Shown here piece by piece: positions 9,317-25,068 of a stretch of DNA of 32,000 bases. Source of the stretch: Candidatus Iainarchaeum sp. (lineage in GTDB: Archaea; Iainarchaeota; Iainarchaeia; Iainarchaeales; JAZDEL01); assembly GCA_043808785.1 (NCBI GenBank), contig JAZDEL010000004.1, positions 30,001 through 62,000 of the forward strand, read 5' to 3'. Position 1 is the first letter of the stretch. Each line of letters begins with the position of its first letter. The position numbers and the translations under genes are program-made. A model generated the notes under the pieces. It did not search any database and was not told the DNA's origin. It saw only the letters and a list, made by a program, of their open reading frames with translations.

Positions 9317-9415
9317 CCAGGGAAGCCGAAGGCACGGTTCCCGCGGGTGCGGCCGAACGGGTTCGTGCGGAACCGCTTTCAGGCTGCGGCAGGGCAAACG
9401 GCACGCTGCCGCGCC

Positions 9416-9827: not shown

Positions 9828-12167
9828 TCACCCGCCCGTAAAGGTCCCTATGAGCGCGTTGGAAACGACAACTGAAAGCACGAAGACAATTATCGCAATC
9901 GGCAGGTTGCGGGCAAGGTTCATGCGCACAAGCAAATCGTTGTCCTCCTCTATCTTTGTGGTGAAGTAGCTCATTATCACCACGAGCTCGATTATGTAAA
10001 TCGCGACTATGATTATGAATTGGGTGGGAGTGGCCATCGTGCTTATCGCCTCGGCATTTATGAACGAGGAGAGGTTGACGCCTGAAAAGGCGACGGAGGA
10101 GCCCGCGGCACCTAAAGCGGAAACATCGGGGCTTGCGGTTTCGAGCGTGCCCGAGGAAGCGATGGACGCAAGCGTGACTATCACGACCCTCTGCAGGCTG
10201 GTGGTTATGCCCAAAACAACGGGGGCTATGAACATCGTCATTGTCTTCATCATGCCCGTGATGTCGCTCACAAGCACCTTAAGGTTCTGCGCAACTTTCT
10301 GCGAATTGCTCAGTTGTATGCTGAGCGAAATCATTGTGCGCGCTGCGACATTCACGCCCAACTGCACGCTGTCAACAAGCAGGCGCATTGAGCCGCGTAT
10401 TATTGAACTCGGGTTGTCGCGCAATGAGCCATAGTGCGGGTCGAAAACAGCTGCCTCGAGCGGCATTGCAAGCAGGGAAATGTTGTCGACCGTGCGCCCG
10501 AAAAGGCGGTCGGAAATTTTCAGCTTAGGCAGGAAGGTGCGCGTGTGCTTCAGCGCCTCTTCCACAGGCTTATTTTCCCCCATGCGCGAGGCAAGCACAT
10601 ACAGGGAGTCCTTGAACTCGTTCTCCATCACCATTACTTCCTCCTGCACGCGGCGCTTTGCCACGTTGGGGTAATGCAGCGCGATAAAGCCCATTATGCC
10701 GACGGTTATGAGCAGGCCGAATACAAGGTTGTACGGCGCCGCATCATGGTCCGCGTCCATGAAATAAAGCGAGCGCTCGAGCGCGAGCTTTTTCTTCGCC
10801 TTTTCCGCATCTCCCGACTGCCCGAGGAGTTCGCGGTAGCGTTCGCTGCTTTCGTCCGCATTGAAATATGATGCGCTCTTCCCGTCCGCACGCAGTATCT
10901 CCGCCTCGCTCCTGTCGTAATTAAGGAGCTGTGGCGTGCCCTCCTTGAGCACGGCGCGCGGGGGCATGCCCTGCATGGAGAGGAAAAGGGACGCCCCCGC
11001 GCCGGCAATAAGCACGAACGCCAGCACAACCGCCAGGTTCATGTTCATGCCGCCAAGGCGCATTGTTCCCCTTGGGGGAAGGCCGGGGAAATTGTTAGGA
11101 ATTACCGGGGGCTCGTAAGTGGGGGGGCGCTGCCTCACAAGCCTCACAGCAAAAATAATTGTCACAAGCGGTATCGCCACATTGTAAATCAGCGCGAGGA
11201 TAATCGGGTTTGCAAGCGGCGCCCCGGAAAATGAGGAACCTACAGGGAGGATTATTATGAGTATAAGCGGCAGCAGCACCCCTATGTAGAAAAGCATGGT
11301 GCTCGGCTGGGAGAGTTCGCGGGCGTACTGCTCCATCTTTGACTTTATGCTCTCAAGCACCTCGGCCATTGTCTTGTCAAGCAGGGCATAACGCTTTGCC
11401 TCGGTGTCCTCGATGACGGATGCCCTTACCATCATCAGGCCGCGCTTGAACTCCTCGCTGAATGTGCCCCACCTGTATGCAAGCGCGTCGAGCGCCTCGG
11501 AAAGGGTTGTGTACACGCCGACCTGAACCTGCCAGAGCAGGTTCTTCAGGTCCTCGGCGATTTTCCCGCGCCCGTGCCTTGCCGCAAACTCTATAGCCTT
11601 CTCGAGGTTGGGCACGAGCTTCATGGACATCACCATGTAGCCCAGAATTTCGGGGACATATGTAAGGGCGCGTATCTGCTCCGCCTTTGCCGTGTTTATC
11701 GGGTAGTTCTGGACATAATTCACGATGTAGAGCGCCGCAAGTATGAACGGCAGGAATATGTAAACAGGCACGAGGAAGGGCATGGGCCCTGCAATGGACG
11801 CGACTATATTTGCCACGGGCGAAAAATAAATGAGAAGGCTTATTGCGAAACCCGCAAGCAGCGAAACTATTAGCGCGAACTTCGATGCCGCCGCGAACTC
11901 CTCCGCTGTGAGGTCCCATGCGAGGAACGAAACAGCCTCGGCGTTCCGCTCATTAAACTTTCCCCCCTTGCCCAGGGAAGGCATCGAGCGGTGAATGCCG
12001 CGGCAGAACTTCACAAAAGGGTGAGTGGCTTTCCTCACAAGCCCCTGGTCAAGCACCTCGAACTCCCTTATGCGCGTCGGGATTGCACTGTAAAGCGCGC
12101 CTATGTCGGGCTCCTCATCGCGCGCCCTTGCTGCGGGCTTTCCATGGAAACGAGGCATAGTAAGCAC
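9828..12167 (-). CDS. Type IV pilus/archaellum-type polytopic membrane platform protein (FlaJ/TadC/PilC-like, two T2SSF-like halves), 779 aa
   Basis: Track ORF, starting at the GTG at 12167 or the ATG at 12158 (MPRFHGK...). There are two repeats of a cytoplasmic helical domain followed by TM helices (...LEKAIEFAARHGRGKIAEDLKNLLWQVQVGV...LSQPSTMLFYIGVLLPLILIIILPVG and ...PVEEALKHTRTFLPK...MKTMTMFIAPVVLGITTSL). It sits immediately downstream of the secretion ATPase. Confidence 0.8.
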   Translation of the reverse strand: MLTMPRFHGKPAARARDEEPDIGALYSAIPTRIREFEVLDQGLVRKATHPFVKFCRGIHRSMPSLGKGGKFNERNAEAVSFLAWDLTAEEFAAASKFALIVSLLAGFAISLLIYFSPVANIVASIAGPMPFLVPVYIFLPFILAALYIVNYVQNYPINTAKAEQIRALTYVPEILGYMVMSMKLVPNLEKAIEFAARHGRGKIAEDLKNLLWQVQVGVYTTLSEALDALAYRWGTFSEEFKRGLMMVRASVIEDTEAKRYALLDKTMAEVLESIKSKMEQYARELSQPSTMLFYIGVLLPLILIIILPVGSSFSGAPLANPIILALIYNVAIPLVTIIFAVRLVRQRPPTYEPPVIPNNFPGLPPRGTMRLGGMNMNLAVVLAFVLIAGAGASLFLSMQGMPPRAVLKEGTPQLLNYDRSEAEILRADGKSASYFNADESSERYRELLGQSGDAEKAKKKLALERSLYFMDADHDAAPYNLVFGLLITVGIMGFIALHYPNVAKRRVQEEVMVMENEFKDSLYVLASRMGENKPVEEALKHTRTFLPKLKISDRLFGRTVDNISLLAMPLEAAVFDPHYGSLRDNPSSIIRGSMRLLVDSVQLGVNVAARTMISLSIQLSNSQKVAQNLKVLVSDITGMMKTMTMFIAPVVLGITTSLQRVVIVTLASIASSGTLETASPDVSALGAAGSSVAFSGVNLSSFINAEAISTMATPTQFIIIVAIYIIELVVIMSYFTTKIEEDNDLLVRMNLARNLPIAIIVFVLSVVVSNALIGTFTGG

Positions 12168-12221: not shown

Positions 12222-12280
12222 ATTCCTTCCCCGCCTTTTTCCCCGTGAGCGGCACAGTTATTCCTTCCCCGCCTTTTTCC
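12222..12280. repeat. 21-bp perfect direct repeat (38-bp offset) duplicating the 3' end of the ATPase gene into the intergenic spacer
   Basis: attccttccccgcctttttcc occurs at 12222-12242 and at 12260-12280. The second copy encodes the last residues (KKAGKE-stop) of the ATPase. Confidence 0.85.
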
Positions 12281-14546
12281 TCGCAAGCAAACGCTTGACC
12301 TGGTAATTCCTGACCCAGTGCTTCCACTCCCCGAGCACCTCATTATAGTCTATGCTGCCGTGCTCCCTGAGCTGGCCTTCCTTTATGAGCACAAGTTTGT
12401 TGTTCGCAACAACCGAATTCTCCGCCTCGAGCAGCAACGGGAGCTTGAATTCGTTCTTCATCTGGACCATGAATTCCTTTGCGGATGCGTGCGTCCTTAT
12501 GCTGTCCCACATCTGCTCCATATTCAATCCCGACATCCTGCTTATCTTCGGGAAAATTTCGGATTCCTTGAGGTTGTCCTCAAGCAGCTCTAACTTGTCC
12601 TTTTTTGCGGTGTAGTTCATCAAATCAAGCAGGCCCCCTTCTTTCTCGGGGTCCTCTGTCCAGTGCTTTTTCACTTCCGTAACCTGAACAACGCGCCTCT
12701 GCCTTTCGAGCGAGCCGTGGAAACGGATGGGGCGGGCAACAACCACAATATCCGTTGCCTTGAATGATGTGTTAGGCACGTCAAGGTCGTTCACAACCCT
12801 GTCCCATACGCTGTATGCGGAGTCGCCGTGGATTGTGCCCATCACAATGTTCCCCGCAGCGCCAATGCGCATCGCCTCATAGAGGACGCGCGCCTCCCTG
12901 CTCCTCACTTCCCCGATTACGAGCGCCGAGTCGCCTAACCTCAGGGCTGTGCGCAGTGATTCCGCGGGGGAAACTTCGGATGTCGCTGCCGAGCCCGCAA
13001 TAGGCGAGCGCGTCTTGAGGCGCTGTATGTTGAAGCCGATGCTCTTCATGTAGGGAACGCCTATTTCCATTGTGTCCTCCTGCACTATTATGCGCGTGTT
13101 CTGGATTATCTCGAGCATGAGCGCGCCCATTAGCGAGGTTTTTCCAGAGCCCCTTGAGCCCGTGACAAGCATCGTCGCCTGCGAATCGATGAGGAAAGAA
13201 AGCAGGCCCGCGGCAAGGGGCGTGAGGAATTTCACATCGACAAACTGCGGCAGTGTCCAGGGGGTCATCTTGTGCAGGCGGAATGCAAACGCGACTCCGT
13301 CAGGTGCAAGAGGCGGCCCTATTACCGCAACCCTTGTCTCGAGGTCCTGCAAATCGAAATCAAGCACCGGATGCGCCTCATCGAAAGGCCTGCCCGACAT
13401 CGCGCGCAGCTTGCTCACCATGGAGCTTGCCTCGTCCTCTGTGTAAACGATGTTTGTCTGGCACTGCCCGAAGTCGGAGTGCACGACATAGAGGGGCTTG
13501 AGCCCTATCGGGGAGTCGAGGTATATGTCCGTAAGCTTGCGGTCGGAGAGCAATATCTCGAGGATGCCGTAACCAACTGTGTACCTCGCAACAATTCCGC
13601 TGAGCTCTATTATTTCCGCATTGTCGATTTTTATTCCCGCTTCCCTTGCGATGTCCTTTATCGTCGACTGGTAAACCCTTTCAAAATAGCGCCTGCTCCT
13701 TGCAAGGTCGCTGAGGTTCGTCCGCCCGGGCCTGTATGACGCGACAAGTTCGCGGGTTTTTGAAAGTATGAAATATTTATCGGGCGGCAGGGAATACTCC
13801 GGCGGGTTTATGAAGTAAAGGCATTCCGCCCTGTTCGGGTGCCTGAAAATCTGCACCTGCGATTCCTTTACCTGGTATTCGTCAAGCAGTTCGAGTTTCT
13901 CCATGCCGCCGAACATAAGCCTCGAGCCTATGAAGCTCGGCTTAACATCCACCTCGAAAAAACTCCTGTATAACTGCGCAGTCTGCGGCATTTCCTTGAG
14001 GTTAAGCAGTATCGCCTTTGCCTTTGAAATGAGTTCGGTTTTCTCGAACTCCGATTGCAAGTAAAGCAGGGTTTTGAGGTAGACGCCCGAGTATGTTGCG
14101 GGGTCGCTCTTCTTTACCATCTCGCGCTCGCGCACAACGGCCTGAAGAAGCTCGACATATGCCGCGATGGGGTCGAACATTATCAGGTCGTGCGCCGCGC
14201 GCACAATCGTGTTATGCCTTTCCCCGAAATTTTTTTCCCCTTCCTTTGCCGCATCCCCGAGGTACTTGGAACCCCAGACGCTCTCGACCTCGAACTTCTG
14301 CGCTAACTGCGCAACCTCCATCAGCATCCTTGCCTGCTCCTCCCCATAAACGCGCTCGTAAACCTCCGCAAGCACAACCAAATCCGCTTCCGCCTCCTGC
14401 ATTGCGCGCATCACGTGATACCTGCACGCCTTGTCGTCCGCAAGGTTCGAGCTGTATATGCAGCCGCGGCAGTCCATGATGAGGTGCCGCTTACCCCCCT
14501 CATCCTTAACTGCGTAAGGACCTACCTCGAAACCGCCGATTTTCAA
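12258..14546 (-). CDS. Type II/IV secretion-family ATPase (FlaI/PilB/GspE-like) with a long N-terminal extension, 762 aa
   Basis: Track ORF with a TTG start. Motifs: Walker A GSRGSGKTS (13160-13137), an Asp-box region IIVQEDTMEI, Walker B ALVIGEVRSREA, and His box MGTIHGDSAY. Followed by the FlaJ-like platform gene. Confidence 0.9.
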   Translation of the reverse strand: MKIGGFEVGPYAVKDEGGKRHLIMDCRGCIYSSNLADDKACRYHVMRAMQEAEADLVVLAEVYERVYGEEQARMLMEVAQLAQKFEVESVWGSKYLGDAAKEGEKNFGERHNTIVRAAHDLIMFDPIAAYVELLQAVVREREMVKKSDPATYSGVYLKTLLYLQSEFEKTELISKAKAILLNLKEMPQTAQLYRSFFEVDVKPSFIGSRLMFGGMEKLELLDEYQVKESQVQIFRHPNRAECLYFINPPEYSLPPDKYFILSKTRELVASYRPGRTNLSDLARSRRYFERVYQSTIKDIAREAGIKIDNAEIIELSGIVARYTVGYGILEILLSDRKLTDIYLDSPIGLKPLYVVHSDFGQCQTNIVYTEDEASSMVSKLRAMSGRPFDEAHPVLDFDLQDLETRVAVIGPPLAPDGVAFAFRLHKMTPWTLPQFVDVKFLTPLAAGLLSFLIDSQATMLVTGSRGSGKTSLMGALMLEIIQNTRIIVQEDTMEIGVPYMKSIGFNIQRLKTRSPIAGSAATSEVSPAESLRTALRLGDSALVIGEVRSREARVLYEAMRIGAAGNIVMGTIHGDSAYSVWDRVVNDLDVPNTSFKATDIVVVARPIRFHGSLERQRRVVQVTEVKKHWTEDPEKEGGLLDLMNYTAKKDKLELLEDNLKESEIFPKISRMSGLNMEQMWDSIRTHASAKEFMVQMKNEFKLPLLLEAENSVVANNKLVLIKEGQLREHGSIDYNEVLGEWKHWVRNYQVKRLLARKKAGKE

Positions 14547-14580: not shown

Positions 14581-14619
14581 TGCGAACGCCTGCCGATGGC
14601 TTGGATACAATTAGCGTTA

Positions 14620-14636
14620 TCTTATTATTATACTTT
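14620..14636 (-). promoter_or_regulatory. Candidate TATA region for the ATPase operon
   Basis: The minus strand reads aagtaaagTATAATAATAAGataacgc, 40-55 nt upstream of the uORF ATG. It is the only AT-rich stretch in the 108-nt spacer. Confidence 0.35.
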
Positions 14637-14654
14637 ACTTAATGCGCGCAGGGT

Positions 14655-17600
14655 TCATTTCCTTTGCCTTTCCTTTCCCCTGCGGAATGCCAAAATTGCC
14701 GCAGCGCCGAGCACAATAATTGCGGCAGCAACAACTACTGCAATCTGCTGCAGCCCTGCCGCGTCAGTTCCTTCCCCTGTCCCTGCAACAGCGGACGCGG
14801 TTGCCTGTACGCCCGCCTCTATGCATTTTCCCCCCATGCACCTGAAGCCTGCGCCGCACAATGTTCCGTCCCTGAGCACATCATAAACGCATTTTCCCTC
14901 CTTGCAGTAATCCGCGGTGCATGCGTCATAATCGTTGCAGAACACGCCCATGCACGCATCGCCGGCATCAAGCCCTACAAGCGCCACGGGAGCGCGCATC
15001 CTTCCGAACTTTGCCGGGGTAATTGAGCCCTCCACAGCGCTCCTGTTGAAATCGTAGGTTACGCTCTTTTCCCCTCCCGCGGGAATGTCGCCAAGCGTGA
15101 ACCTGATTATCGGGTCCTCCTCGACAACGTGGAAAGGCGTGCCGCTTACAATCGTCTTCGCGCTCTTCGCTACTTCCTTTGGTATTTCCTCCACAATCTC
15201 GACACCATGCAGCGCTTCCCCACTCAGGTTCACAGCAGTGAGGGTTATTGAATTTGAGTGCTTGACAATCGTATTTTCCCCCCAGAGCGCCTCCACAACA
15301 AGCGACCTTTTGAACGACAAATCATCGCCTGTTGCAAGCCTTTTGCGTTCCGCTCCCGCACCCTCATCAAGGCTGCGTATGGGTATGCCGACCTCCGCGG
15401 CAAAACTGCCGGAGGTTTCAATCGACAGCACGCGCTCGGCCTTTATTATTTCGGGTTCGGGCGCGGTTCCCCCTCCGCCTCCGCGGTTAATGGGGGGAAT
15501 AACTTCCTCGCTCTCGGGCACCGAGCCCGTGGCTCCGCTGTTCTGCAGAACCGCAACAGTAACAGCAACGCTTGCGTCATTGGAGTTCTCATCCGAAACA
15601 TCGTGCGCGCGTGCATAGAAAATGTGCGCGCCGTTGGAAAGGCTTCCGAATGTGTAGGTAAGGTTCAGCGCATTGTCTACCCAGTCCTCGCTGTCCTTTT
15701 TCACATAATATTTGTCTATGCCGCTTGTTGAGCCTGCCGCTGAATATGTGATTGTTACCGAGCTCGAGGTTGTCGTGGAGCCGTTTGCGGGGGAGGTTAT
15801 TGAAACTATGGGCGCGGAGAAGTTGTCGTCTATCTGCAGCTGCGCGTTCTGGTCGTCCGCAGTAAGGGAGCCTAACCAAACCACAACCGCGTACTGCCCC
15901 ACAGTGTTCACATCCGCGACAAAGTCGATTCCCTCGTTCAAATCAACATTGTTTAGGCGCATCAAGGGGCGGGTGGAAGCGGTGTAGCTCGCGATTTCAA
16001 ATGCGGGGCTGTAGCGGTTAGTGTCCCAGTTGTTGTGGTCGTTGTATATTCCGTTAGTGGAGATGTTGAAGTCCACGCGGTTGCCTGAGGCGGTTACCTT
16101 GTAGGCGCCTGTGTTGTAATCGAAGCCCTGCGAGGTGCCCGTTGCCATGAACAAATTGTCGGGGTTGCGGTAGTCGAGCATGTAATAATCCACGAGGTTT
16201 TCGTCGGGGGCGGACTGTATTGGATACATTACCTGACCGAATTGTTTGGTGTCGGAGAGAACAAGAAGGTAATTTAGGTAATCCATTTCCCCCGCGTCGA
16301 ATTCCGAAGCCAGATCCCAATCAATCCAGCCCACATTCCCCTCAGTACCCCAATTTGTTGCAAAGTCAGTTGGCGCCCATCTCCCATCCCAAAATGTTTG
16401 GGAACTTTGCGGAGGATAACCAGTAATGAGCAGGGTGTTTGCGTCAAAGTCGGAGTTCAAATCATAGCGCTGCCTTGCGTGCCACCATGAAGGGTCGCCA
16501 CTTGGGAATATGCCCGTGGCATTGTTATCCTGATAAGTATAAAGGATACCTGCAGGCGTTTGTGTCCTGTGAATCATAAAAGTAGAATTTGTTGCTGCGG
16601 AATTAGTATCCGTGAATTCCATATGGACCGCAGCCCTGAACCCACCAATTACGGGGTAAATTGTTGTTGTTTTGACATAATTCAGGTCATATATCTGCCC
16701 GCTTGTGCCTGAGATGCTTTGCCCCGCAGGGCCCCAGCGGGTTAATGCCCCGCTTGCGGTAATTTTTACCCTGCTGTTCAGGTCTTCGTTAAGGGTTAAG
16801 GCTGCCCCGTTATCATCGGACTCGCTCCTAGTAACAATGCCATCACTAATCTGCCAATTATCAAATACTGTGCTACCGCTGCCAGAGGATAGATTTTTCT
16901 TTGCGGAATCCCTGTTTAAGTCCACAATCGTTGAGAGGCAGCCACCTTCATACTGGTTAAAGAACATATTAAAATCACTCGTCCCCACCTCGAAATTCGC
17001 CCCTGTCGCGTTCACGTCGAGGTGGCGGATGGTAGGGGAAACAGTGGTAAGGGTAAAGGTAACCGTTGCAGTGGTCGAGTTATTGTCCGCATTGTCCTGC
17101 GCAATCACATACGCAGTATGCGAACCAGGCGCCAAGCCGAAGAAAGTGCGCGTTATGTTAACGTTGTTGTCAATCCAGCCAAGATTGTCCATCTGCACGT
17201 AATATTTCTTTATCCCGCTGTTCACATCTATTCCCCAGTATTTGACGTTCATTGAATTCGCCGCCGTGCTTGAGCCAACGGAGGGGGAGGTTATTGTTAC
17301 GGCGGGGGCGTTCAAATCCTGCGCTATGGTGAACTGCGCGTTTTCATCGTTTCCAGTGAGCGCGCCGAGCCAGACAACGACGGCGTAATTGCCCAAATCG
17401 TTCACATCGGAAACATAATCCACGCCCGCGGTTTTCAGGACGCCGTTTATTTTCATCGCGGGCGCAGTGGGGGCGAGGTAATTATTAATCTGGAATGCGG
17501 GATAATACCTGTTAGTGTCCCAGTTGTTGTGGTCGTTGTATATTCCGTTTGTGCAGATGTTGAAATCCACCTTGTTGTTGTCCGCTGTGAGGAGGTATGC

Positions 17601-18572
17601 CGCGGTGTTGTAATCGAAGCCCTGTGTTGTTCCTTTTGACATGAATAAATTGTCGGGGTTCCTGTAATCTAGCATTATGTAATCGATTTTGTTTTCGTCG
17701 GGCAGGGCTTGCAGCCCCCAATTCACGGCACCAAGTTCGCCTGTGTTTGAGAAATAAAGCATATAGTTTACATAATCCATTTCCCCGGCTTGGAATTGCG
17801 GGCTAAAGCCACTACTATCATTCCACCCCGAATTTCCAGTCGTTGTCCAGATATACTGCGAGTCTGGATCCCACTTCTTGTTGTAAAAACTTGAGTCTGC
17901 GGCGCGCTTGGCGTAGCCGCTGGCAATTACTGAGTTTTTGTCATAATCTGAATTCAAATCTGTGCGCTGTATTGAATGCCACCAGTCGCTTCCCGCAGGG
18001 TTGCCAGTATTGTTGTCTGCATACCCGACCATCCCTGTGCTTTTCCCCACTACGAAGTGTGAAAATTGCCCATAGTTTGTCGCACCACTATTTGTATCAG
18101 TAAATTCCATATGAACTGCAGCCCGTATTCCGCCGATAGTCGGGTAGATTGTCGTTGTTTTATTGAAATTCAAGTCATACAGGGCATTATTTGTTAATGC
18201 ACCATAGGTATGCACCTTAACCCTGCTTTGCAGTTGCTCATCAATATTGAGTATGGCGGCAGTATCGTTAACATCAGCCCTCCAAGTTGAACTAGAACTT
18301 GTCCACGACCAACTATCGGAAGACCTTTGCGGCCACGTTCTGTCGCCGCTACTAATGTCGGTTTTGCTGTCGGTATTCAAATCCCAAACACCATATATCG
18401 TTCCGCCCTTGTTCTGCTGGAAGAATATATTCCAATCCGCAGTCCCCACCTCGAAATTATCCCCTGTCGCGTTCACATCCAGCACATAATTCGCCGAGAG
18501 CGCGTTTCCGGCAAACGCCAGAAATGCGATTAACAAAAAAAGTGCGAAACACGCATTCCTCATTCCATGCAT
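14655..18572 (-). CDS. Giant cell-surface protein: signal peptide, two ~490-aa tandem modules, Ig-like/CARDB-like region, Cys-rich knot, C-terminal TM anchor with a basic tail
   Basis: The track ORF extends to 18698. A start at the ATG at 18572 (MHGMRNACFALFLLIAFLAFAGNALSA/NY) or 18563 is more likely, downstream of an AT-rich TATA-like stretch (18600-18620). The C-terminus reads ...CNDYDACTADYCKEGKCVYDVLRDGTLCGAGFRCMGGKCIEAG...GEGTDAAGLQQIAVVVAAAIIVLGAAAILAFRRGKERQRK. Confidence 0.8.
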   Translation of the reverse strand: MHGMRNACFALFLLIAFLAFAGNALSANYVLDVNATGDNFEVGTADWNIFFQQNKGGTIYGVWDLNTDSKTDISSGDRTWPQRSSDSWSWTSSSSTWRADVNDTAAILNIDEQLQSRVKVHTYGALTNNALYDLNFNKTTTIYPTIGGIRAAVHMEFTDTNSGATNYGQFSHFVVGKSTGMVGYADNNTGNPAGSDWWHSIQRTDLNSDYDKNSVIASGYAKRAADSSFYNKKWDPDSQYIWTTTGNSGWNDSSGFSPQFQAGEMDYVNYMLYFSNTGELGAVNWGLQALPDENKIDYIMLDYRNPDNLFMSKGTTQGFDYNTAAYLLTADNNKVDFNICTNGIYNDHNNWDTNRYYPAFQINNYLAPTAPAMKINGVLKTAGVDYVSDVNDLGNYAVVVWLGALTGNDENAQFTIAQDLNAPAVTITSPSVGSSTAANSMNVKYWGIDVNSGIKKYYVQMDNLGWIDNNVNITRTFFGLAPGSHTAYVIAQDNADNNSTTATVTFTLTTVSPTIRHLDVNATGANFEVGTSDFNMFFNQYEGGCLSTIVDLNRDSAKKNLSSGSGSTVFDNWQISDGIVTRSESDDNGAALTLNEDLNSRVKITASGALTRWGPAGQSISGTSGQIYDLNYVKTTTIYPVIGGFRAAVHMEFTDTNSAATNSTFMIHRTQTPAGILYTYQDNNATGIFPSGDPSWWHARQRYDLNSDFDANTLLITGYPPQSSQTFWDGRWAPTDFATNWGTEGNVGWIDWDLASEFDAGEMDYLNYLLVLSDTKQFGQVMYPIQSAPDENLVDYYMLDYRNPDNLFMATGTSQGFDYNTGAYKVTASGNRVDFNISTNGIYNDHNNWDTNRYSPAFEIASYTASTRPLMRLNNVDLNEGIDFVADVNTVGQYAVVVWLGSLTADDQNAQLQIDDNFSAPIVSITSPANGSTTTSSSVTITYSAAGSTSGIDKYYVKKDSEDWVDNALNLTYTFGSLSNGAHIFYARAHDVSDENSNDASVAVTVAVLQNSGATGSVPESEEVIPPINRGGGGGTAPEPEIIKAERVLSIETSGSFAAEVGIPIRSLDEGAGAERKRLATGDDLSFKRSLVVEALWGENTIVKHSNSITLTAVNLSGEALHGVEIVEEIPKEVAKSAKTIVSGTPFHVVEEDPIIRFTLGDIPAGGEKSVTYDFNRSAVEGSITPAKFGRMRAPVALVGLDAGDACMGVFCNDYDACTADYCKEGKCVYDVLRDGTLCGAGFRCMGGKCIEAGVQATASAVAGTGEGTDAAGLQQIAVVVAAAIIVLGAAAILAFRRGKERQRK
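15540..18488 (-). repeat. Intragenic tandem duplication (two modules of about 487-498 codons)
   Basis: The protein modules align: LDVNATGDNFEVGTADWNIFF... with LDVNATGANFEVGTSDFNMFF..., KTTTIYPxIGGxRAAVHMEFTDTNS in both, and MLDYRNPDNLFM...GFDYNT...NGIYNDHNNWDTNRY in both. Identical DNA blocks: a 39 nt block at 16017-16055 and 17511-17549 (offset 1494), a 17 nt block at 16981 and 18442, and a 16 nt block at 17000 and 18461 (offset 1461). Confidence 0.85.
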
Positions 18573-18705
18573 GGAAAACACCGCAAAAACCGAATAGAAT
18601 AGGTTAATGTTATTATTATTCATTGCGGGCACGGGGTTTTTGGGCGCGCAGCGGGGCACGGGAATGCGGGCGCATGCCGCGGGTTCGGAAAGGCACACGC
18701 AAAGC

Positions 18706-18713
18706 TTTAAAAC
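18706..18713 (+). promoter_or_regulatory. TATA box (TTTAAAAC) for the gene starting at 18736
   Basis: gcTTTAAAACag is centred about 27 nt upstream of the ATG at 18736. Confidence 0.45.
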
Positions 18714-18735
18714 AGAAAGCGCGCATAATTAGGGC

Positions 18736-19812
18736 ATGGGAAACTGGTACGCGTTTGATTCAATAGGCGAGGGCATTGCAAAGGCCCGCGGCCTGCTGCG
18801 CGGCCCCGGCCTGTTCGGGAAATGGATGAAGCTTGCTGTGCTTGTTTTCATAGTCAGCCTGCTCTCCGGGGGCTGGGGAGGGCTTGATTACAGGGCATCG
18901 GATAGCGACGCAACGCAGTTCGCCGGGGTATTGAACCAGGCAGCGGCGGTGCCTTCAGAAATAATAATAATCGCCATTATTGCCGCAATTGCCGCGGCAC
19001 TTATTGTGGGGGCGATATTCGGGCTTGTGAGGAATGTTTTCTTCTTCGCAACCCTTGAATCCATAACAACGGGGCAGGCTAAAATTTTCGGCTATCTCGG
19101 GAAGTTCGCGGGGCTTGCGGTTTCGCTCACGCTTTTCGAGATTGTGCTTGCGTTAATCACGCTGCCTTTCGGCATCGCGTTCGCGCTTTCAATTGCGGGC
19201 ATGCTGCTGATGTTCGGGCTCCTTCCCGCAGCGCTCACGTCCGCAATCTATGCCGTGCCAGTGCTTGGCGGAATTGCCACATTTGCATCGAACCCGCTGG
19301 CGATTGTGGCGATGGGAATTATCGGGGCTCTCGGAATTGCAATACTCGCGGCCGTGAATTACATAAAGGGGCAGTTCGCGGAATACATGATGTACATGCA
19401 CGGCCACAGGGCATTCGATGCTTTTAAGCGCTCCGCGGGGCTTGTAAGGAGGAACCTTGCGCAGGTAATTATCCTTCTCTTCGCGCAGTTTTTGCTCCTC
19501 ATTGCGATAGGGATTATTTCGGTAATATGCGCGGCAATATTCTTCGGGCCGCCCGTGATTGCGGGGCTGCTCATAGGCGGGGCGCTCGGAATTACGGGAA
19601 TGCTTTCCAACCCGATAGTGGCCGTGCTTGCGGCGCTTGTTGCGGGGGCTGTTTTCCTAATCGCGGCGTTCCTGATGAACCTTGTGCTCACGCCCGTGAA
19701 AATTTTCACATACTTCTTCAACCTGGCAGTGCTCGAAAAAATGTCGGGCGGCGGGGCTGTGATAACGGTTGCAAAGGGGGCGAAGGGCTGGCCGAAAGGC
19801 GACCCGCGCTGA
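18736..19812 (+). CDS. Polytopic Gly/Ala/Ile-rich membrane protein, unknown function (358 aa)
   Basis: Track ORF with an ATG start and an upstream TATA box. It has about 8 hydrophobic helices. The N-terminus MGNWYAFDSIGEGIAKARGLLRGPGLFGKWMKLAVLVFIV loosely resembles DUF4013-type proteins (weak, from memory). It is followed 26 nt later by the archaeosortase-like gene. Confidence 0.65.
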   Translation: MGNWYAFDSIGEGIAKARGLLRGPGLFGKWMKLAVLVFIVSLLSGGWGGLDYRASDSDATQFAGVLNQAAAVPSEIIIIAIIAAIAAALIVGAIFGLVRNVFFFATLESITTGQAKIFGYLGKFAGLAVSLTLFEIVLALITLPFGIAFALSIAGMLLMFGLLPAALTSAIYAVPVLGGIATFASNPLAIVAMGIIGALGIAILAAVNYIKGQFAEYMMYMHGHRAFDAFKRSAGLVRRNLAQVIILLFAQFLLLIAIGIISVICAAIFFGPPVIAGLLIGGALGITGMLSNPIVAVLAALVAGAVFLIAAFLMNLVLTPVKIFTYFFNLAVLEKMSGGGAVITVAKGAKGWPKGDPR

Positions 19813-19838
19813 GCATTTCAAAATAGGGCGGCGAAAGC

Positions 19839-20510
19839 ATGGCTCCTGCCGGAAATGGCGCCGAAAGTGCGGAACCTCCACGCGCGGAGGAACTGCCCGG
19901 CGGCGCGCTGAAAATTTCGGAACTTAAGGGCAAAAAAAACTTCTGGGAAAGCGCAAACTTCAGGGCGGAGGCCCTGCGCGGGCTGAAGTTCCTCGCGGGA
20001 ACGGCAGTTGTTTTTGCGGCGCTGCATTTTTTGTTTTTGCTTGTTGTGCCGCTTGCGAACGTTGAACTTTTCTACGCGAACCTCGCGCTTTTTTTCGCGG
20101 GGTTTTTCGGGGTTAACGGAAATGTTCAGGCGTTCTCCGAACCCGTGCTTATTTTCGCGTGGGGCAAGGGGCTTACGTTTCCGATTTCGGTTTCATACCT
20201 CTGCACCGGGCTTCTTGAAATGCTGCTGCTCGTTGCCGCGGTTGCCGCATCATTCGGGATAGAAATCAGGAAGCGCGCGCTCGGCATTGCGGGCGCCGTT
20301 GCTGCAACCGTGCTCTTTAACCTGCTGCGCATAACCGCAAGCATCCTGCTCATTGTTTTTTACGGGCTCGGGATTGCGGAAATCGGGCACGAAATATTGT
20401 TCCGCCTGTTCCTGTTCGTGACTGTCGCGGGATATTACACGCTGTGGTTCTGGTGGGCTACGGGGCAGGCGCCAAAGGCGCTAAATAAGATTTTCCGCAA
20501 ATCTTATTAA
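19839..20510 (+). CDS. Exosortase/archaeosortase-family protein (small, 223 aa)
   Basis: Track ORF. A membrane protein carrying the ordered family signature: Cys122 in SVSYLCTGLLEMLLL (tgc 20202-20204), Arg164 in VLFNLLRITASILL (cgc 20328-20330), and His184 in AEIGHEILFRLF (cac 20388-20390). The order and spacing match the Cys/Arg/His triad of EpsH/ArtA-type sortases. Confidence 0.6.
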   Translation: MAPAGNGAESAEPPRAEELPGGALKISELKGKKNFWESANFRAEALRGLKFLAGTAVVFAALHFLFLLVVPLANVELFYANLALFFAGFFGVNGNVQAFSEPVLIFAWGKGLTFPISVSYLCTGLLEMLLLVAAVAASFGIEIRKRALGIAGAVAATVLFNLLRITASILLIVFYGLGIAEIGHEILFRLFLFVTVAGYYTLWFWWATGQAPKALNKIFRKSY

Positions 20511-20530: not shown

Positions 20531-20824
20531 ATGGAGGTGTCGATTTTGGCAACTGTTGAAATGACCAAAATGAGTTCGAGAGGGCAGGTTGTTATTCCGC
20601 AGGACATAAGGGATAACATGAAACTGAAGGAGGGAGAATCGTTCGCCGTGGTGGCAAGCGGCGACACGCTGCTGCTCAAAAGGATTGCAACCCCTTCCAA
20701 GGAAGAGATACTGCGCGAATGGAAGAGGGCCGCAGCCAAGGGCAGGGAGGAGGCAAAAAAACTGGGCATAAGGCAGGGCGATGTGGAGAAACTGATCCAT
20801 AAGGGCAGGGGAATCAGCGGATGA
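20531..20824 (+). CDS. AbrB/SpoVT-family antitoxin (VapB/MazE-like)
   Basis: Track ORF. MSSRGQVVIPQDIRDNMKLKEGESFAVVASGDTLLLKRI is a typical SpoVT-AbrB swapped-hairpin motif. GGAGGTG (20533-20539) precedes an in-frame TTG at 20546, and ATGs at 20561/20570 are alternative starts. The stop overlaps the ATG of a PIN stump (ATGA). Confidence 0.75.
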   Translation: MEVSILATVEMTKMSSRGQVVIPQDIRDNMKLKEGESFAVVASGDTLLLKRIATPSKEEILREWKRAAAKGREEAKKLGIRQGDVEKLIHKGRGISG

Positions 20825-20874
20825 TTAGGGCGGTTCCGGACACTAACGTGCCAGCATCAAATGGCAACAGTTAG
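20821..20874 (+). pseudogene. vapC: Truncated PIN-domain (VapC-like) toxin remnant, 17 codons
   Basis: ATGATTAGGGCGGTTCCGGACACTAACGTG... encodes MIRAVPDTNVPASNGNS-stop. The ATG overlaps the antitoxin TGA (ATGA), and xxPDTNV is the canonical first acidic motif of PIN toxins. The reading frame ends exactly where GC content collapses. Confidence 0.5.
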
Positions 20875-20934
20875 TTTATAAAGACATTTTGCTCTTTAAA
20901 AATAGGAGTAGGCACAATACATACTGGTGATTAT

Positions 20935-21201
20935 TTGGAGAAATCCGAGATAATAAAGGCTATCGAAGGCAGGGTAATGGCTGCCGAAAGCAAAAACTAT
21001 TCTATTTGGACTGTTGGCATAACAAATAATCCAGGGCGGAGGAAAAACGAACATGAGAGTGAAAAAAATGTGCGACATTGGAATGATTGGAAGGCTGATA
21101 GCGAGAATGAGGCAAGAGATATTGAGAAATACTTCTTGGCAAAGGGAATGAAAGGGGAAGCAGGCGGTGGCGAAAACCCTACTTACGTATACATCTTTTA
21201 G
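20935..21201 (+). CDS. Small GIY-YIG-like protein (tentative), 88 aa
   Basis: Track ORF with a TTG start (alternative ATG at 20977). SIWTVGITNNPGRRKNEH...EARDIEKYFLAKGMKGEAGGGENPTYVYIF resembles the xYxGxT-x-R-x-x-H...E core of GIY-YIG-type domains. Assignment is from memory only. It lies in the low-GC region. Confidence 0.4.
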   Translation: MEKSEIIKAIEGRVMAAESKNYSIWTVGITNNPGRRKNEHESEKNVRHWNDWKADSENEARDIEKYFLAKGMKGEAGGGENPTYVYIF

Positions 21202-21286
21202 GGTTCCCCGCAATTGTTGTTTTGCATATGAATTAGATTTTATGCGGAATATAGTTTAGATTTTCAAGAATGTTGCGTGATATAAA

Positions 21287-21535
21287 ATGGATAGGGATTT
21301 ATTGAAAAAAGAATTACAAACTTACGAAGACAAAAAGAAGGAATTAGTTTCGGAGCATCCTGGCAAGTATGTGCTAATCAAAGAAGATAAGATAATTGGT
21401 ATTTTTGAGTTTCAAAAGGCAGCCATAAATAGCGGATTTGAAAAATTTGGCAATGTTCCTTTTTTGGTGAAAAAAATAGAACTTGTGGAACAAAAGCAAA
21501 ATTTTACTTCGAACCTTATTATTACTGGTAACTAG
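21287..21535 (+). CDS. Small protein (82 aa), possibly DUF5678-like; partner of the downstream protease
   Basis: Track ORF with an ATG start. HPGKYVLIKEDKIIGIFEFQKAAINSGFEKFGNVPFLVKKI fits the small beta-rich 'GKWVAI-dgkvv' type domain. Its stop is 10 nt before the protease ATG. Confidence 0.45.
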   Translation: MDRDLLKKELQTYEDKKKELVSEHPGKYVLIKEDKIIGIFEFQKAAINSGFEKFGNVPFLVKKIELVEQKQNFTSNLIITGN

Positions 21536-21545
21536 TGGGATAGAT

Positions 21546-21977
21546 ATGTCCAGCATAACTCGCACAATGAACAATCTACAGAGAGAAGGCCCATTGTTAG
21601 ACATTTATTTTTCTGTTCCTGCGGAATTGGAGAGAAAATTAAAAAAAGAAGGAAAGCAAGTTCCTGAGAGCATACATTGCAAGGCATTGATAGATACAGG
21701 AGCGAGCAATTGCGTAGTCCAAGCAAATATTCCCCAAGCACTTAAATTGAATCCAATCGGCGAAACCACAATGGCAACTCCGTCCTGCCAATCTTGCAAG
21801 TGCTATACTTATTTGCTAAGAATAACTATCCCCCAACAACAAATTGCTTACGAATGTGTTTTTACTTCGGCACCACTGCAGGGCCAAGAAATTAATTGCC
21901 TAATCGGCAGGGATATTCTTTCCCAATCCCACTTTACATATATAGGCTACATGAACCAATTTACATTTTCAATATAG
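21546..21977 (+). CDS. Retropepsin-like (clan AA) aspartic protease, 143 aa
   Basis: In-frame ATG at 21546 within track ORF 21483-21977. It carries the catalytic signature ALIDTGASNCVV (D-T-G-A) and the downstream LIGRDIL motif typical of single-lobe retroviral-type proteases that dimerise. Confidence 0.7.
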   Translation: MSSITRTMNNLQREGPLLDIYFSVPAELERKLKKEGKQVPESIHCKALIDTGASNCVVQANIPQALKLNPIGETTMATPSCQSCKCYTYLLRITIPQQQIAYECVFTSAPLQGQEINCLIGRDILSQSHFTYIGYMNQFTFSI

Positions 21978-21998
21978 CCGCGCACAGAGGCGGAAAAT

Positions 21999-22253
21999 TC
22001 ATTGCGGACCTTTTTTCAACAATTTTTTCCCTTTCTCAGTTGTCTTGTAATACCTGAAATTCGGCTGGGTAGGATTAATGCATACGACGAGTTTTTGCCT
22101 TTCCATTTCAAGAAGCGCCCTGCTTACGCTTTCCCTGTGCACGCCGATAATTTTTTTCAGGTCGGTCGCGGTTTTCGGCTCCTGCAGAAGCCTGAGCAAC
22201 TGCGGCTTAATTTTGCTCCGCCTTAGCGAGGCTATTAGGTCGTAATCGGGCAT
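21999..22253 (-). CDS. Winged helix-turn-helix transcriptional regulator (84 aa)
   Basis: Track ORF. LLRLLQEPKTATDLKKIIGVHRESVSRALLEMERQKLVVCINPTQPNFRYYKTTEKGKKLL shows the ArsR/MarR-like wHTH pattern of recognition helix plus beta-wing. Confidence 0.65.
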   Translation of the reverse strand: MPDYDLIASLRRSKIKPQLLRLLQEPKTATDLKKIIGVHRESVSRALLEMERQKLVVCINPTQPNFRYYKTTEKGKKLLKKGPQ

Positions 22254-22316
22254 AGAATCAGAAACGTAACCTCCAAATTAAAGACAGCGGAACATCAGCG
22301 TAACCTGTGAGTTTTT

Positions 22317-22718
22317 ATGCTTTTTCCCCCACAAAAACTAATGATAAAAATGGGTTCAAGAACGGTTGAATTTGTACTTGGGCTTATCGGGGGAATCCTC
22401 GGCTTTTTTGCCGCGCTCTTGGCAATTTTAATAGGCGGTTTAGGTGCGGCAGTTGGGGAAGCTGTTGACAGCCAAGAAACAGCCTCGTCAGGCTCTCTTG
22501 TAATTTTGCTCGGATTTTCGGCAATTATTTTTTCCATTATCGGAATTGTCGGGGCGGCGTTGGTGAAGGGAAGGCCAAAACTCGGCGGGGGGCTGATGCT
22601 CGTTTCCGCTGTCGGCGGGCTGATTTCAATAAGTTTGTTTTACTCCCTTTCATTCGTATTGCTCTTTATAGGCGGGCTGATGGGCCTACTCAAAAAAGAT
22701 AAAGAGGTTTCAGAATGA
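22317..22718 (+). CDS. Small Gly-rich membrane protein (DUF4064-like, tentative)
   Basis: Track ORF, starting at the ATG at 22317, 22341 or 22350. It has four hydrophobic helices (FVLGLIGGILGFFAALLAILIGGLGAAVG, LVILLGFSAIIFSIIGIVGAALV, GGGLMLVSAVGGLISISLF, SFVLLFIGGLMGLL). Its stop overlaps the next ATG (ATGA at 22715-22718). Confidence 0.6.
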   Translation: MLFPPQKLMIKMGSRTVEFVLGLIGGILGFFAALLAILIGGLGAAVGEAVDSQETASSGSLVILLGFSAIIFSIIGIVGAALVKGRPKLGGGLMLVSAVGGLISISLFYSLSFVLLFIGGLMGLLKKDKEVSE

Positions 22719-23807
22719 GCGGCAGGAAAACGGCATCGATTGCAGGATTAATTTTCATTTTGATAATAGTCGGGTTAAGCGGCTGCACAAGCAATAATTC
22801 CTCTTTAAGAAAGGATTTCGTTTCCGACGGCAGCCAGAATGCCGAGGTTGCGCAAAACGGCCAAGAGGCGCCAACGCAAACACGGGGCGCGAGCGATTCT
22901 GAATCTCAAAAAACGTATGAGTTCGATAAGGCGGTTGTGTTGGATAACCTGGAGTATAAATTTTCCAACGTTGCCGTAAGAAAACAATTGTTTCCAGAAA
23001 ACTCTCGTTGCCGTAAGAAAACAATTGTTTCCAGAAAACTCTTTTAGTAGCCCCCAAGAAACTGAAGGCTATTTCGTAATTCTTGATGTCGCGGTAAAAA
23101 ATGTAGGGCTGGATGCAATAAATGGCTATAATGCTGGCAACATAAAACTGATAGACAAGAAGACGAGGGTTTATGAAAGTTCTTCAATTGGCATAAATAC
23201 GTTTGTCGGTTTTGAAAACGCAAAAGACTTTTTCTTGGAAAAAATCAACCCCGGCTTGTCGGAAAAGGGCACTTTATTTTTTGAAGTCCCGGAAGACTTC
23301 TTCTCGAAAGGCGCCGCGGGGGACTTTTCAGCAGAAGGATTTATTGCCGTAGAAAGTCTTGGCAAGTCAGAGTCTGTGTTCGTCAAATTCCCGGATAATT
23401 TGGATTTAGGAGCCGCCAACAATGTCGAAGCGAGCGCCAACGCCAACATAACAAGCATAGAATATACTTGGTACGGCTCATCTTCTGGCGGCTATATTAA
23501 AAAAATAAATTTTAAGATAACCAACACCGGCGGCACGGTAATTAATCTTGGCTTGAAATACAGGATAATAGATGTTTCGGTCAAAAGCAACGACCCGCCG
23601 CTGATAGCGGAGGGACAGGATAGTTGGTTCGACAGCAAATCGATGAATTCATGGGATGCCATCAAGCCGCAAGAGGAGAGCGAAGCGTATTTAGTTCAAT
23701 GGTACCCAACTGTCAAGGCGGGGAAATACAAATTCGAATTAACGTTTTTTGATAAAACCAGCGGCAAGGAACTGACAAAAACAGAAAAGGAACAGCAGAT
23801 ACCGTGA
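22715..23807 (+). pseudogene. Lipoprotein with a DUF4352-type Ig-like domain, frameshifted by a 37-bp tandem duplication
   Basis: Track ORFs 22715-23047 and 23025-23807 are two halves of one gene. The N-terminus MSGRKTASIAGLIFILIIVGLSGC has a lipobox. Removing one 37-bp copy joins ...KFSNVAVRKQLFPENS to FSSPQETEGYFVILDVAVKNVG...IKLIDKKTRVYE...INPGLSEKGTLFFEVPED in one frame (351 codons). Confidence 0.75.
22969..23042 (+). repeat. Perfect 2 x 37-bp tandem duplication
   Basis: cgttgccgtaagaaaacaattgtttccagaaaactct at 22969-23005 is repeated exactly at 23006-23042 (compared base by base). The flanking bases differ, so the unit is exactly 37 bp, which is not a multiple of 3. Confidence 0.95.
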
Positions 23808-23834
23808 GGATTGCACGCCCCCATTATTTTGCAA

Positions 23835-24026
23835 TCACAGATTATGCACCTTTTTGTGCGCATCAACTACTTCAATTTCTATTTCCATATTTTCATAATC
23901 ATCTGGCAAGCCATACGCTTTTTTTAATTCGGGGTTTTCCTTCACTTGGCGAATTGCATCAAGCAAGGATGCTTTTAAATATTCTCCAAAAGCACGATTT
24001 TTTAATTTAAGTTTTATTTTTTCCAT
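23835..24026 (-). CDS. Small hypothetical protein (63 aa)
   Basis: The in-frame ATG at 24026 within track ORF 23835-24089 is preceded by GGAGGTGG with ~6-nt spacing. Starting there avoids overlap with the reductase gene. No family recognised, and the region is low-GC. Confidence 0.4.
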   Translation of the reverse strand: MEKIKLKLKNRAFGEYLKASLLDAIRQVKENPELKKAYGLPDDYENMEIEIEVVDAHKKVHNL

Positions 24027-24060
24027 TACCAAACCACCTCCATAGCTATTCTGCAAAGTT

Positions 24061-25068
24061 TCAGCGCATAGGGCGCGCGACCTTTTCAACAGCCTCTTTG
24101 TTCACTACTGCCCTTGGCGTCCTGCCCGCGAAAAAATCCACAAGGTTCTGCGCCGCAAGAACGGACATGGCGTCCCTTGCCTCCACGGTTGCACTCCCAA
24201 GGTGCGGCGCGAGGACAACGTTCTGCAGCGCGCGCAGCTCTTTCGGAATCTCGGGCTCGTTCTCGTAAACGTCCAGCGCTGCGCCGAAAATCGTGCCCTG
24301 CTTAAGCGCATTTATGAGCGCCTTTTCATCGACAACGGGCCCGCGGGCCATGTTTATGAGGCATGCGGTTTTCTTCATAATCGCGAGTTCGTGCCCCCCT
24401 ACCATGTGCTTCGTTTTTTCGTTCAGGGGGACGTGCAGCGAAACAAAATCGCTGACCATAAGCAGCGTCTCGAGCGGCTTGTATTCTATGCCTAACTCGC
24501 GCTCCGCATCCTCCTGCCTTATAACGTCGGAATAGAACACGCGCATTCCGAAGCCCTTTGATGCGCGCTCCGCAACCGCTTTCCCTATCCTGCCAAGGCC
24601 CACGATGCCAAGGGTTTTTCCGTAAACATCAACGCCCAACATATACTCGGGTTCCCAGCCAGTGAAGTTGCCTGCGCGCGCAACCCTGTCCCCTTCCGAA
24701 ATCCTGCGCGCAATGTCGAGCATCAGTGCGATTGTGCAGTCCGCTGTTGCCTCGTTCAGCACGTTCGGCGTGTTTGCCACAACAATGCCGCGCTTTGTCG
24801 CTTCGGGAACGTCTATGTTGTTGAACCCCACGCCGAAGTTCGACACTATTTTCAGTTTCGGCTCCGCGGAGAGGACGTCCGCGTCGATTTTGTCAGTAAG
24901 GATGCAGAGCAGCGCGTCCTTTCCCTTCACGCGCGCGATAAGTTCCTTTTTTGTGAGTACGCGCTTCTCGGCGTTTGCCTCCGCATCGAAATGCGCTTCA
25001 AGAAGCACTATTCCCTTTTTGGGAATCGGCTGCGAAACAAAAACCTTGGGCTTTGCCAAAAAAACCAA
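24061..25068 (-). CDS. gyaR: D-2-hydroxyacid dehydrogenase family: glyoxylate/hydroxypyruvate reductase
   Basis: Track ORF, starting at the TTG at 25068 or the TTG at 25059 (giving MAKPKVFVSQPIP). It aligns along its whole length with my memory of Pyrococcus GyaR: KPKVF..., TKRGIxVxNTPxVLxxATAD, VYGKTLGIVGLGRIGKAVA (NAD fold), INxARGxVVDxxAL, and LDVxExEP...NVVLxPHxGSA. Confidence 0.85.
   Translation of the reverse strand: MVFLAKPKVFVSQPIPKKGIVLLEAHFDAEANAEKRVLTKKELIARVKGKDALLCILTDKIDADVLSAEPKLKIVSNFGVGFNNIDVPEATKRGIVVANTPNVLNEATADCTIALMLDIARRISEGDRVARAGNFTGWEPEYMLGVDVYGKTLGIVGLGRIGKAVAERASKGFGMRVFYSDVIRQEDAERELGIEYKPLETLLMVSDFVSLHVPLNEKTKHMVGGHELAIMKKTACLINMARGPVVDEKALINALKQGTIFGAALDVYENEPEIPKELRALQNVVLAPHLGSATVEARDAMSVLAAQNLVDFFAGRTPRAVVNKEAVEKVARPMR

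Follow-up and report, generated by a model that had tools for sequence, protein, structure and literature searches.

A compact archaeosortase-family protein of Iainarchaeia, its large surface-protein neighbor, and a pilus-like gene cluster

The locus and its archaeosortase-family protein

The stretch of DNA analyzed here (called the window) covers 32,000 nucleotides of the 200,738-bp contig JAZDEL010000004.1 from Candidatus Iainarchaeum sp., and three of its open reading frames (ORFs) are the subject of this work. A large secreted surface protein of 1347 amino acids (aa) is given in the ORF list on the minus strand (14655–18698). Two genes are read from the plus strand beside it: a 358-aa polytopic membrane protein of the Pfam family DUF7544 (PF24400; 18736–19812) and a compact 223-aa archaeosortase-family protein (19839–20510) recognized by the model TIGR04178. 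A TATA-like TTTAAAA element, read from the sequence, lies at 18706–18712 on the plus strand, approximately 27 nucleotides 5′ of the ATG of the 358-aa gene, and it is also kept in the intergenic region of the closest relative, L001. The C-terminal tail of the 1347-aa protein (14658–14777, minus strand) consists of GEGTDAAGLQQ, a transmembrane (TM) helix, IAVVVAAAIIVLGAAAILAF, and the basic end RRGKERQRK. An earlier sequence-only reading of this DNA had reported the three ORFs, motifs around Cys122, Arg164, and His184 in the 223-aa protein, the tail, and a TATA box belonging to the 358-aa gene itself, and all of them were found at the positions given there. It had suggested that the archaeosortase and the large protein may form a sortase and substrate pair of an undescribed kind, to which the 358-aa protein might add a third component. 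Rfam and tRNA scans of the window revealed no RNA genes.

For comparison, we used 42 other archaeosortase loci (given L numbers), which derive from 6 protein look-ups and 40 GTDB species representatives, with 4 duplicates. The upstream context was read from 31 informative loci, the window and 30 others, in which the sequence extends 3 kb or more upstream of the archaeosortase gene. Genes in the comparison loci were called as greedy longest ORFs, TM segments were counted with a simple Kyte–Doolittle hydropathy script, and homologues were searched for in a collection of 5.8 billion proteins (entries given P numbers).

The 223-aa protein scores 39.3 bits (E = 6e-10) with TIGR04178 exo_archaeo, the curated signature model of NCBIfam, and passes its cutoff of 23. 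The same model is matched by 29 of its 30 homologues from the protein collection, which are mostly 165–206 aa long. An identical protein, P0001, from a metagenome-assembled genome (MAG) of Ca. Diapherotrites, carries the NCBI name ‘exosortase/archaeosortase family protein’. With Pfam Exosortase_EpsH (PF09721), the 223-aa protein scored 11.5 bits, under the gathering threshold of 25.7, and precomputed matches to this family are carried by 10 of the 30 homologues. It reaches none of the cutoffs of the named subfamilies (ArtA–ArtF, pacearchaeosortase, heimdallarchaeosortase, and XrtA–XrtY); its best score is 30 bits with XrtG, for which the cutoff is 102.75. Ten homologues were tested in the same way, and none of them reaches any named subfamily cutoff. 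Their best scores were 53 bits for XrtX (cutoff 170), 35 bits for XrtG (103), and 35 bits for ArtB (150); ArtB, ArtD, and ArtE remained at or below 35 bits against cutoffs of 95–150, and XrtH gave up to 43 bits. The ArtA model was matched neither by the window protein nor by its homologues at the thresholds used, and the pacearchaeosortase model, which is derived from DPANN archaea, was matched at all by 2 of the 30 members. An exhaustive profile search returned 1147 cluster representatives (E ≤ 1e-3), of which 224 had E ≤ 1e-10 and 67 had E ≤ 1e-30. The clade is seen almost only in MAGs of Iainarchaeia (Diapherotrites), plus one labeled Micrarchaeota.

The motifs of the presumed active site are YLC122TG, NLLR164I, and IGH184E. 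In an alignment of relatives drawn from these cluster representatives, Cys122, Asn161, and Arg164 are each found in 162 of 162 sequences and Glu127 in 161; His184 is found in 160, and the remaining two sequences have gaps at this position. At position 189, an Arg is present in 147 relatives and a Lys in 13. As judged from this alignment, such conservation is far beyond chance. Because three of these residues (Cys, Arg, and Asn) never vary in 162 sequences and two (His and Glu) hardly do, the active site appears to be under strong purifying selection. The residues of ArtA that are experimentally critical are Cys173, Arg214, and Arg253, and the Cys-to-Arg spacing is 42 in the 223-aa protein compared to 41 in ArtA (PMC9263693). 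The catalytic triad of Cys, Arg, and His proposed earlier holds for the Cys and the Arg, which match critical residues of ArtA; the His, despite its conservation, is outside the experimentally established set of ArtA. Arg189 may be the counterpart of ArtA Arg253.

The 223-aa protein has a core of approximately 180 aa, and its hydropathy profile shows four to five hydrophobic helices. The AlphaFold2 (AF2) model is confident (pLDDT 85.6) and helical, with a small β element immediately N-terminal to Cys122. No related solved structure was found by PDB sequence search or by Foldseek with the AF2 model, where all matches had E > 0.9. According to the positive-inside rule, the cytoplasmic parts are probably the N-terminus, which is rich in Lys and Arg, the IEIRKRA loop, and the C-terminus, with Cys122 and His184 probably placed at the outer face.

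With the TIGR04178 cutoff passed and Cys, Arg, and His conserved in the homologues, the earlier assignment of the 223-aa protein to the exosortases and archaeosortases is confirmed. On sequence grounds, it is a genuine archaeosortase-family enzyme that belongs to an unnamed Iainarchaeia clade outside the named Art and Xrt subfamilies. It was also described as much smaller than ArtA. The small size is correct; it is not unusual, and the profiles of ArtB, ArtD, ArtE, XrtG, XrtH, XrtM, and XrtX have only 150–187 positions. A degenerate or non-catalytic exosortase-like protein, with no sorting activity, would also fit the failed PF09721 threshold, the failure of all named subfamily models, and the lack of an identified substrate. 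However, the curated signature model is passed, the active-site residues are kept over 162 diverged sequences, and several homologues do carry PF09721 matches. We consider a dead enzyme very improbable.

Two further features of the family were noted. P0145 is a fusion of 1102 aa with a compact archaeosortase domain at its N-terminus (residues 13–186), and the C-terminal part of this fusion might hint at function or substrate. The window archaeosortase has an N-terminal cytoplasmic insertion of approximately 30–40 aa (GNGAESAEPPRAEELPGGALKISELKGKKN; window 19851–19975), which is missing from the 80% identical protein of L001.

The large surface protein and its C-terminal tail

The 1347-aa ORF begins at a GTG start that was assigned mechanically and is probably wrong. 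In the NCBI entry P0031, named ‘Ig-like domain-containing protein’, the protein begins with Met43, comprises 1305 aa, and has a Sec-type signal peptide, MHGMRNACFALFLLIAFLAFAGNALS; the true start is probably this Met43, located at 18572. The protein contains tandem repeats of approximately 480 aa, and residues 79–553 and 566–1051 are identical at 246 of 465 positions (53%). Immunoglobulin (Ig)-like matches lie near the repeat ends, an OmpL47-type match at residues 488–549 and a Big_7 match at 963–1025. A Cys-rich module with eight Cys comprises residues 1249–1292, and the C-terminus is made of a single TM helix anchor followed by an Arg/Lys end. The earlier description of a secreted protein of approximately 1300 aa on the opposite strand, with a TM helix near its C-terminus, agrees with this. 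As a whole, the protein is best read as an adhesin-like type I membrane protein. It shares with plain type I archaeal surface proteins the Sec signal peptide, the Ig-like domains, the one C-terminal TM helix, and the cytoplasmic Arg/Lys cluster, and its sole distinction from this class is its position beside an archaeosortase gene.

A search of the 5.8 billion proteins with the 1347-aa protein returned P0031, which is the identical protein, and only two homologues, P0032 and P0033. P0032 is the only full-length homologue. It is 1750 aa long and 47% identical, it is without the Cys-rich module, and its C-terminus reads NILPAMEAYPAMFG ASIIVIIALMAVLFYIL RKRRAKG, a TM helix and then basic residues. 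P0033 is a paralogue from the MAG that contains locus L006; its gene is on an unrelated contig, where it adjoins NurA/HerA-type genes.

The sequence-only reading took the 1347-aa protein to be the dedicated substrate of the archaeosortase, with a new tripartite signal (…AAGLQQ, the TM helix, and RRGKERQRK). If true, this pairing would define a new sorting signal. The architecture fits, with a signal peptide, a C-terminal TM helix, and a basic tail, and P0032 also has the TM helix and basic residues at its end. The large gene is divergently adjacent to the operon of the DUF7544 and archaeosortase genes, the enzyme looks catalytically competent from the conservation of its residues, and a paralogue of the large protein occurs near the archaeosortase in L006. 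The tails themselves and the distribution of the gene, however, point the other way. Curated CTERM models, run against the whole protein and the isolated tail (E ≤ 10), gave no match, the best being noise at E = 1.8; the earlier statement that the tail has no motif of the PGF, PEF, or VPXXXP type is in agreement with this. The tails of P0031 and P0032 cannot be aligned, and the segments before the TM helix share no motif. Such variation between homologues is expected of a simple anchor. A search with the last 145 aa against the 5.8 billion proteins returned no matches; the parent protein was also not returned, so the sensitivity of this search is doubtful. Genuine C-terminal tails with a TM helix and basic residues number only approximately four in approximately 550 kb of related loci (the window, L031, the near-identical L042, and L038). 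No common motif before the TM helix was found among the tails of the window, L031/L042, L038, and P0032. Within the 32-kb window, the 1347-aa protein alone has such a tail.

The distribution of the gene was read from the comparison loci. The window and L001 are colinear, with approximately 80–85% DNA identity, and their secretion ATPases are 97% identical. The colinearity in blastn is interrupted by an indel of approximately 4.05 kb (14645–18695, no strand assigned), which is nearly exactly the 1347-aa ORF and corresponds to 111 bp in L001. The paired segments on its two sides are L001 8706–8744 with window 14606–14644 and L001 8856–10012 with window 18696–19850. The GC content of the indel DNA is 49–52%, compared to approximately 55% in the flanks. 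The slot between the ATPase gene and the DUF7544 gene is variable in other loci too: L004 has a Band_7 gene there, L006 a gene for 231 aa, and L012 a second polytopic gene. In the window, this variable slot is occupied by the 1347-aa gene, which is lineage-specific and was recently gained or variably retained. A homologue is found near the archaeosortase in one of the 42 other loci (L006), and the gene is absent from the other 41, among them L001 with its clean indel.

The tail is thus without a conserved motif, and in the loci compared the large protein shows no co-distribution with the 223-aa gene, which leaves the proposed sortase/substrate pairing essentially without support. For the C-terminal TM helix and Arg/Lys end of the 1347-aa protein, the best reading is a plain stop-transfer anchor, and its pairing with the archaeosortase is probably coincidental. 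That the 1347-aa protein is nonetheless a dedicated substrate, with the DUF7544 protein as third component, appears unlikely to us.

A different tail was seen in L031 (80–706) and L042 (9283–9900), where a secreted protein of 205–208 aa is encoded directly 5′ of the archaeosortase gene. It ends in ‘…DVLKNP(I/S)ILPILLIATLI…RELKNEKQK’, that is, a motif, a TM helix, and a basic end, and is unrelated to the tail in the window. Among the proteins seen in all loci, this NPxILP-tailed protein looks most like a dedicated substrate.

The window encodes a second large secreted protein, of 1038 aa (25293–28409, plus strand), which has a Cys-rich C-terminal region and is without a TM anchor. Its counterpart in L001 has 997 aa and is 51% identical. 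Kinship with the 1347-aa protein was considered and rejected, as the two show no similarity and the 1038-aa protein has no C-terminal TM helix.

Conserved neighbors of the archaeosortase gene

The genes beyond the large surface protein resemble those of type IV pili (T4P). A PilB/FlaI/TadA-type secretion ATPase of 762 aa (12258–14546, minus strand) matches Pfam T2SSE with E = 8e-17 (61.4 bits, cutoff 24.9), and its NCBIfam matches to FlaI and TadA are both under cutoff. The length of this ATPase is unusual, with approximately 290 residues N-terminal to the T2SSE domain. The 779-aa platform protein encoded next to it (9828–12167, minus strand) is PilC/TadC/FlaJ-like and has approximately nine TM segments. 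Its match to Pfam T2SSF is weak, at 20.1 bits under a cutoff of 25.2; in related loci, it is always paired with the ATPase. Small pilin-like genes occupy 5039–9823 (minus strand), and their translations have N-terminal segments that are hydrophobic or resemble class III signal peptides (read by eye, for example, RAGQEAAPFELLVAVIV, RGQAAVTDAMYFLMIAS, and MFEIFRMLIGAIIALLILLI). One of these genes, pil135 (9416–9823), adjoins the platform gene in most loci. None of the pilin-like proteins of the window has a C-terminal TM tail. A prepilin peptidase (Peptidase_A24) had no match among the scanned window ORFs, and it may lie elsewhere in the genome.

This arrangement recurs through the class. Of the 31 informative loci, 28 have a T2SSE-family ATPase (757–798 aa), a PilC-like partner of approximately 780 aa, or both at a distance of no more than 10 kb from the archaeosortase. 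The ATPase gene is usually immediately divergent from the archaeosortase gene, and pilin-like genes come after it. Across approximately 28 species, the ATPase is 64–97% identical, compared to 33–80% for the archaeosortase. The adjacency of the ATPase and the archaeosortase is kept through three different rearrangements (L039, L044, and L045), while the other flank of the archaeosortase varies and may hold an AbrB gene, a 2-hydroxyacid dehydrogenase gene, a MarR gene, or the giant genes described below. Because the adjacency survives rearrangements and the other flank does not stay the same, we favor a functional linkage over mere inherited gene order.

In approximately seven to eight loci, a gene for a class III pilin (KGQAFSTFKLLIAAIVA…) is located directly 5′ of the archaeosortase gene, in place of the DUF7544-like gene. 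These upstream pilins were seen at L034:505–1092, L037:979–1560, L038:9297–9902, L039:7575–8183, L044:2385–2990, and L045:8101–8727. They share the C-terminus ‘CCxIxL(R/K)(Y/F)xx’, and a cut copy in L040 has the same ending.

The 358-aa protein matches Pfam DUF7544 with 99.4 bits (cutoff 27, E = 2.9e-28) over 296 of the 302 profile positions. It is polytopic, with approximately 11 hydrophobic segments. Because the gap between its gene and that of the archaeosortase is 26 bp in the window and the two genes overlap in L002 and L006, they are probably co-transcribed in the subclade of the window. In the window and 15 of the other 42 loci, the gene adjoining that of the archaeosortase encodes a polytopic protein of 292–411 aa with up to approximately 11 TM segments. 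Among these 16 neighbors, five pass the DUF7544 model and three match GPDPase_memb. The DUF7544-positive and DUF7544-negative groups were compared by hhalign, which linked them with a probability of 86.9% (E = 4e-6). The suggestion that the 358-aa protein is a third component of the system is partly supported by this recurrent adjacency in 16 loci; many loci, however, have no polytopic neighbor.

A single family of giant proteins (2400–2950 aa) is encoded near the archaeosortase in 22 loci, most often immediately 3′ of it and in the same orientation. Among these loci are L002, L005 (4163–12949), L015, L021, L024, L031, L034, L037, L039–L042, and L044; the 32-kb window has no member. The N-terminus of the giants is conserved (‘…KGIPxY…RGIPSFPF’) and abuts a TM helix, and CarboxypepD_reg domains are present. 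A C-terminal SLT lytic-transglycosylase domain was found in one of three giants scanned (L005). The giant gene is usually followed by a gene for a single-TM protein of approximately 350–600 aa. At residues of approximately 2000–2170, the giants also have a conserved internal hydrophobic patch that is rich in Cys and Gly (for example, in L024:10629–18896). We considered this patch as a tripartite signal like that of HVO_0405 and ruled it out, as it is a Cys/Gly-rich segment with ‘DCGIPA’ and has no basic cluster.

The conserved neighbors raise the possibility that the enzyme directly processes or anchors non-canonical clients, either pilin-like proteins or the N-terminally anchored giants, with the DUF7544-like protein as an accessory and the 1347-aa protein irrelevant. 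Such clients would fit the class-wide adjacency of ATPase, platform, and pilin genes through rearrangements, the class III pilin with its shared C-terminal ending directly 5′ of the enzyme, the ‘RGIPSFPF’ motif abutting the TM helix of the giants, and the rarity of C-terminal tripartite tails around the enzyme. ArtA of Haloferax volcanii can act on a non-C-terminal signal (PMC9263693). We know, however, of no biochemical precedent for an archaeosortase acting on pilins or N-terminal anchors. If the giant is extracellular, the ‘GIPSFPF’ motif would be cytoplasmic, on the side of the membrane opposite to the predicted active site, and the subclade of the window is without a giant within 32 kb. 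Synteny alone is no proof of a direct interaction. Direct action on such clients, to the exclusion of the 1347-aa protein, is in our view quite unlikely.

On the other side of the archaeosortase in the window, directly 3′ of it, lies an AbrB/MazE-type antitoxin-like gene (20531–20824, plus strand), which is kept in L001, and a PIN-domain gene is present further along (29636–30106, minus strand). A second indel relative to L001 comprises window 20791–24070, where 3.3 kb here correspond to 617 bp in L001. Its GC content is 42–44%, compared to approximately 55% elsewhere. The segment encodes a retropepsin-like aspartyl protease (21483–21977), a helix–turn–helix protein (21999–22253, minus strand), a DUF4064 protein (22317–22718), and a DUF4352 protein (23025–23807), and it looks like an acquired island.

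Proposed role and relation to known systems

We favor, with moderate confidence, the reading that the locus encodes a compact archaeosortase in a conserved surface-biogenesis cluster and that the 1347-aa protein is not its co-evolved substrate. Several points weigh against this reading. The paralogue of the large protein in L006 lies 1.1 kb downstream of the archaeosortase gene. The tail in the window has the generic architecture of a substrate, with a signal peptide, a Gly/Thr/Ala linker, a TM helix, and a basic end. The enzymes of this clade may recognize a signal outside the known motifs, and the comparison of motifs covers just two homologues of the 1347-aa protein, only one of them full-length. 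In addition, synteny in the small genomes of DPANN archaea could reflect the co-regulation of envelope genes and not a direct biochemical link to the pilus-like system.

In the favored reading of a conserved surface-biogenesis cluster, the archaeosortase would be a functional, outward-facing, polytopic membrane cysteine (trans)peptidase, with Cys122 and Arg164 probably at the outer leaflet. By analogy with ArtA, it would most likely cleave the membrane-anchoring segment of selected secreted proteins and then attach these proteins to a different anchor, for example, a lipid. We infer that the clients in Iainarchaeia belong to, or act with, the surface apparatus of pilus-like and giant proteins. 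The conserved partners of the enzyme would be the T4P-like operon, in many lineages the DUF7544/GPDPase_memb-like protein, which may serve as an accessory, and in many other lineages the 2400–2950-aa family. The 1347-aa protein would be processed opportunistically at most; it may be a client, yet not a co-evolved dedicated one.

The enzyme could also be tied more closely to its neighbors. It would then serve specifically in the maturation and anchoring of a conserved DPANN surface apparatus that comprises the T4P-like machine, the DUF7544-like protein, and the giant SLT-bearing protein, and it would read a non-CTERM, possibly non-C-terminal, signal. The 1347-aa protein or the NPxILP proteins of L031/L042 would be extra clients. 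We regard this as a tentative proposal of low probability.

The closest characterized relative is the ArtA/PGF-CTERM system of Haloferax volcanii. Both enzymes belong to the TIGR04178 superfamily, are polytopic, and have a nearly equal Cys–Arg spacing and a further conserved Arg that may be equivalent in the two, and they presumably share the cleave-and-reanchor chemistry. Unlike ArtA, the 223-aa protein is built on its short core with approximately five TM segments and has no match to the ArtA model. No PGF-CTERM proteins were detected, and neither PssA nor PssD was found among the scanned window ORFs. The partners here are the T4P-like operon and DUF7544, and the searchable literature reports neither of them for ArtA. 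To our knowledge, experiments on archaeosortases have been done almost only with ArtA, in haloarchaea. In length, the protein is similar to the short subfamilies XrtX, XrtG, XrtH, XrtM, ArtB, ArtD, and ArtE and to pacearchaeosortase, and members of its family have sub-threshold matches to several of them; the family differs from them in missing every cutoff by a wide margin. We know of no recognized cognate sorting signal for XrtG.

The gene cluster is similar to archaeal T4P and Tad-like systems (Makarova, Koonin and Albers 2016) in its T2SSE ATPase and probably also in its polytopic, putatively PilC/TadC-like partner and its small proteins with N-termini resembling class III signal peptides. 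It differs from these systems in that the ATPase of the window is long and very conserved, the T2SSF match is weak, and no prepilin peptidase was found in the scanned ORFs. The 2016 survey of archaeal T4P mentions no association with a sortase, exosortase, or archaeosortase (Makarova, Koonin and Albers 2016). In the searchable literature, we found no account of an archaeosortase system in DPANN archaea, of a link between archaeosortases and T4P, or of DUF7544.

Among the secondary results of this analysis, the most interesting is that an archaeosortase is linked class-wide to a pilus-like locus across approximately 40 species, often together with a giant surface protein. DPANN archaea are thought to depend on cell–cell contact. 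The conserved cluster suggests a testable surface-biogenesis module and is a lead for the cell-surface biology of these archaea.

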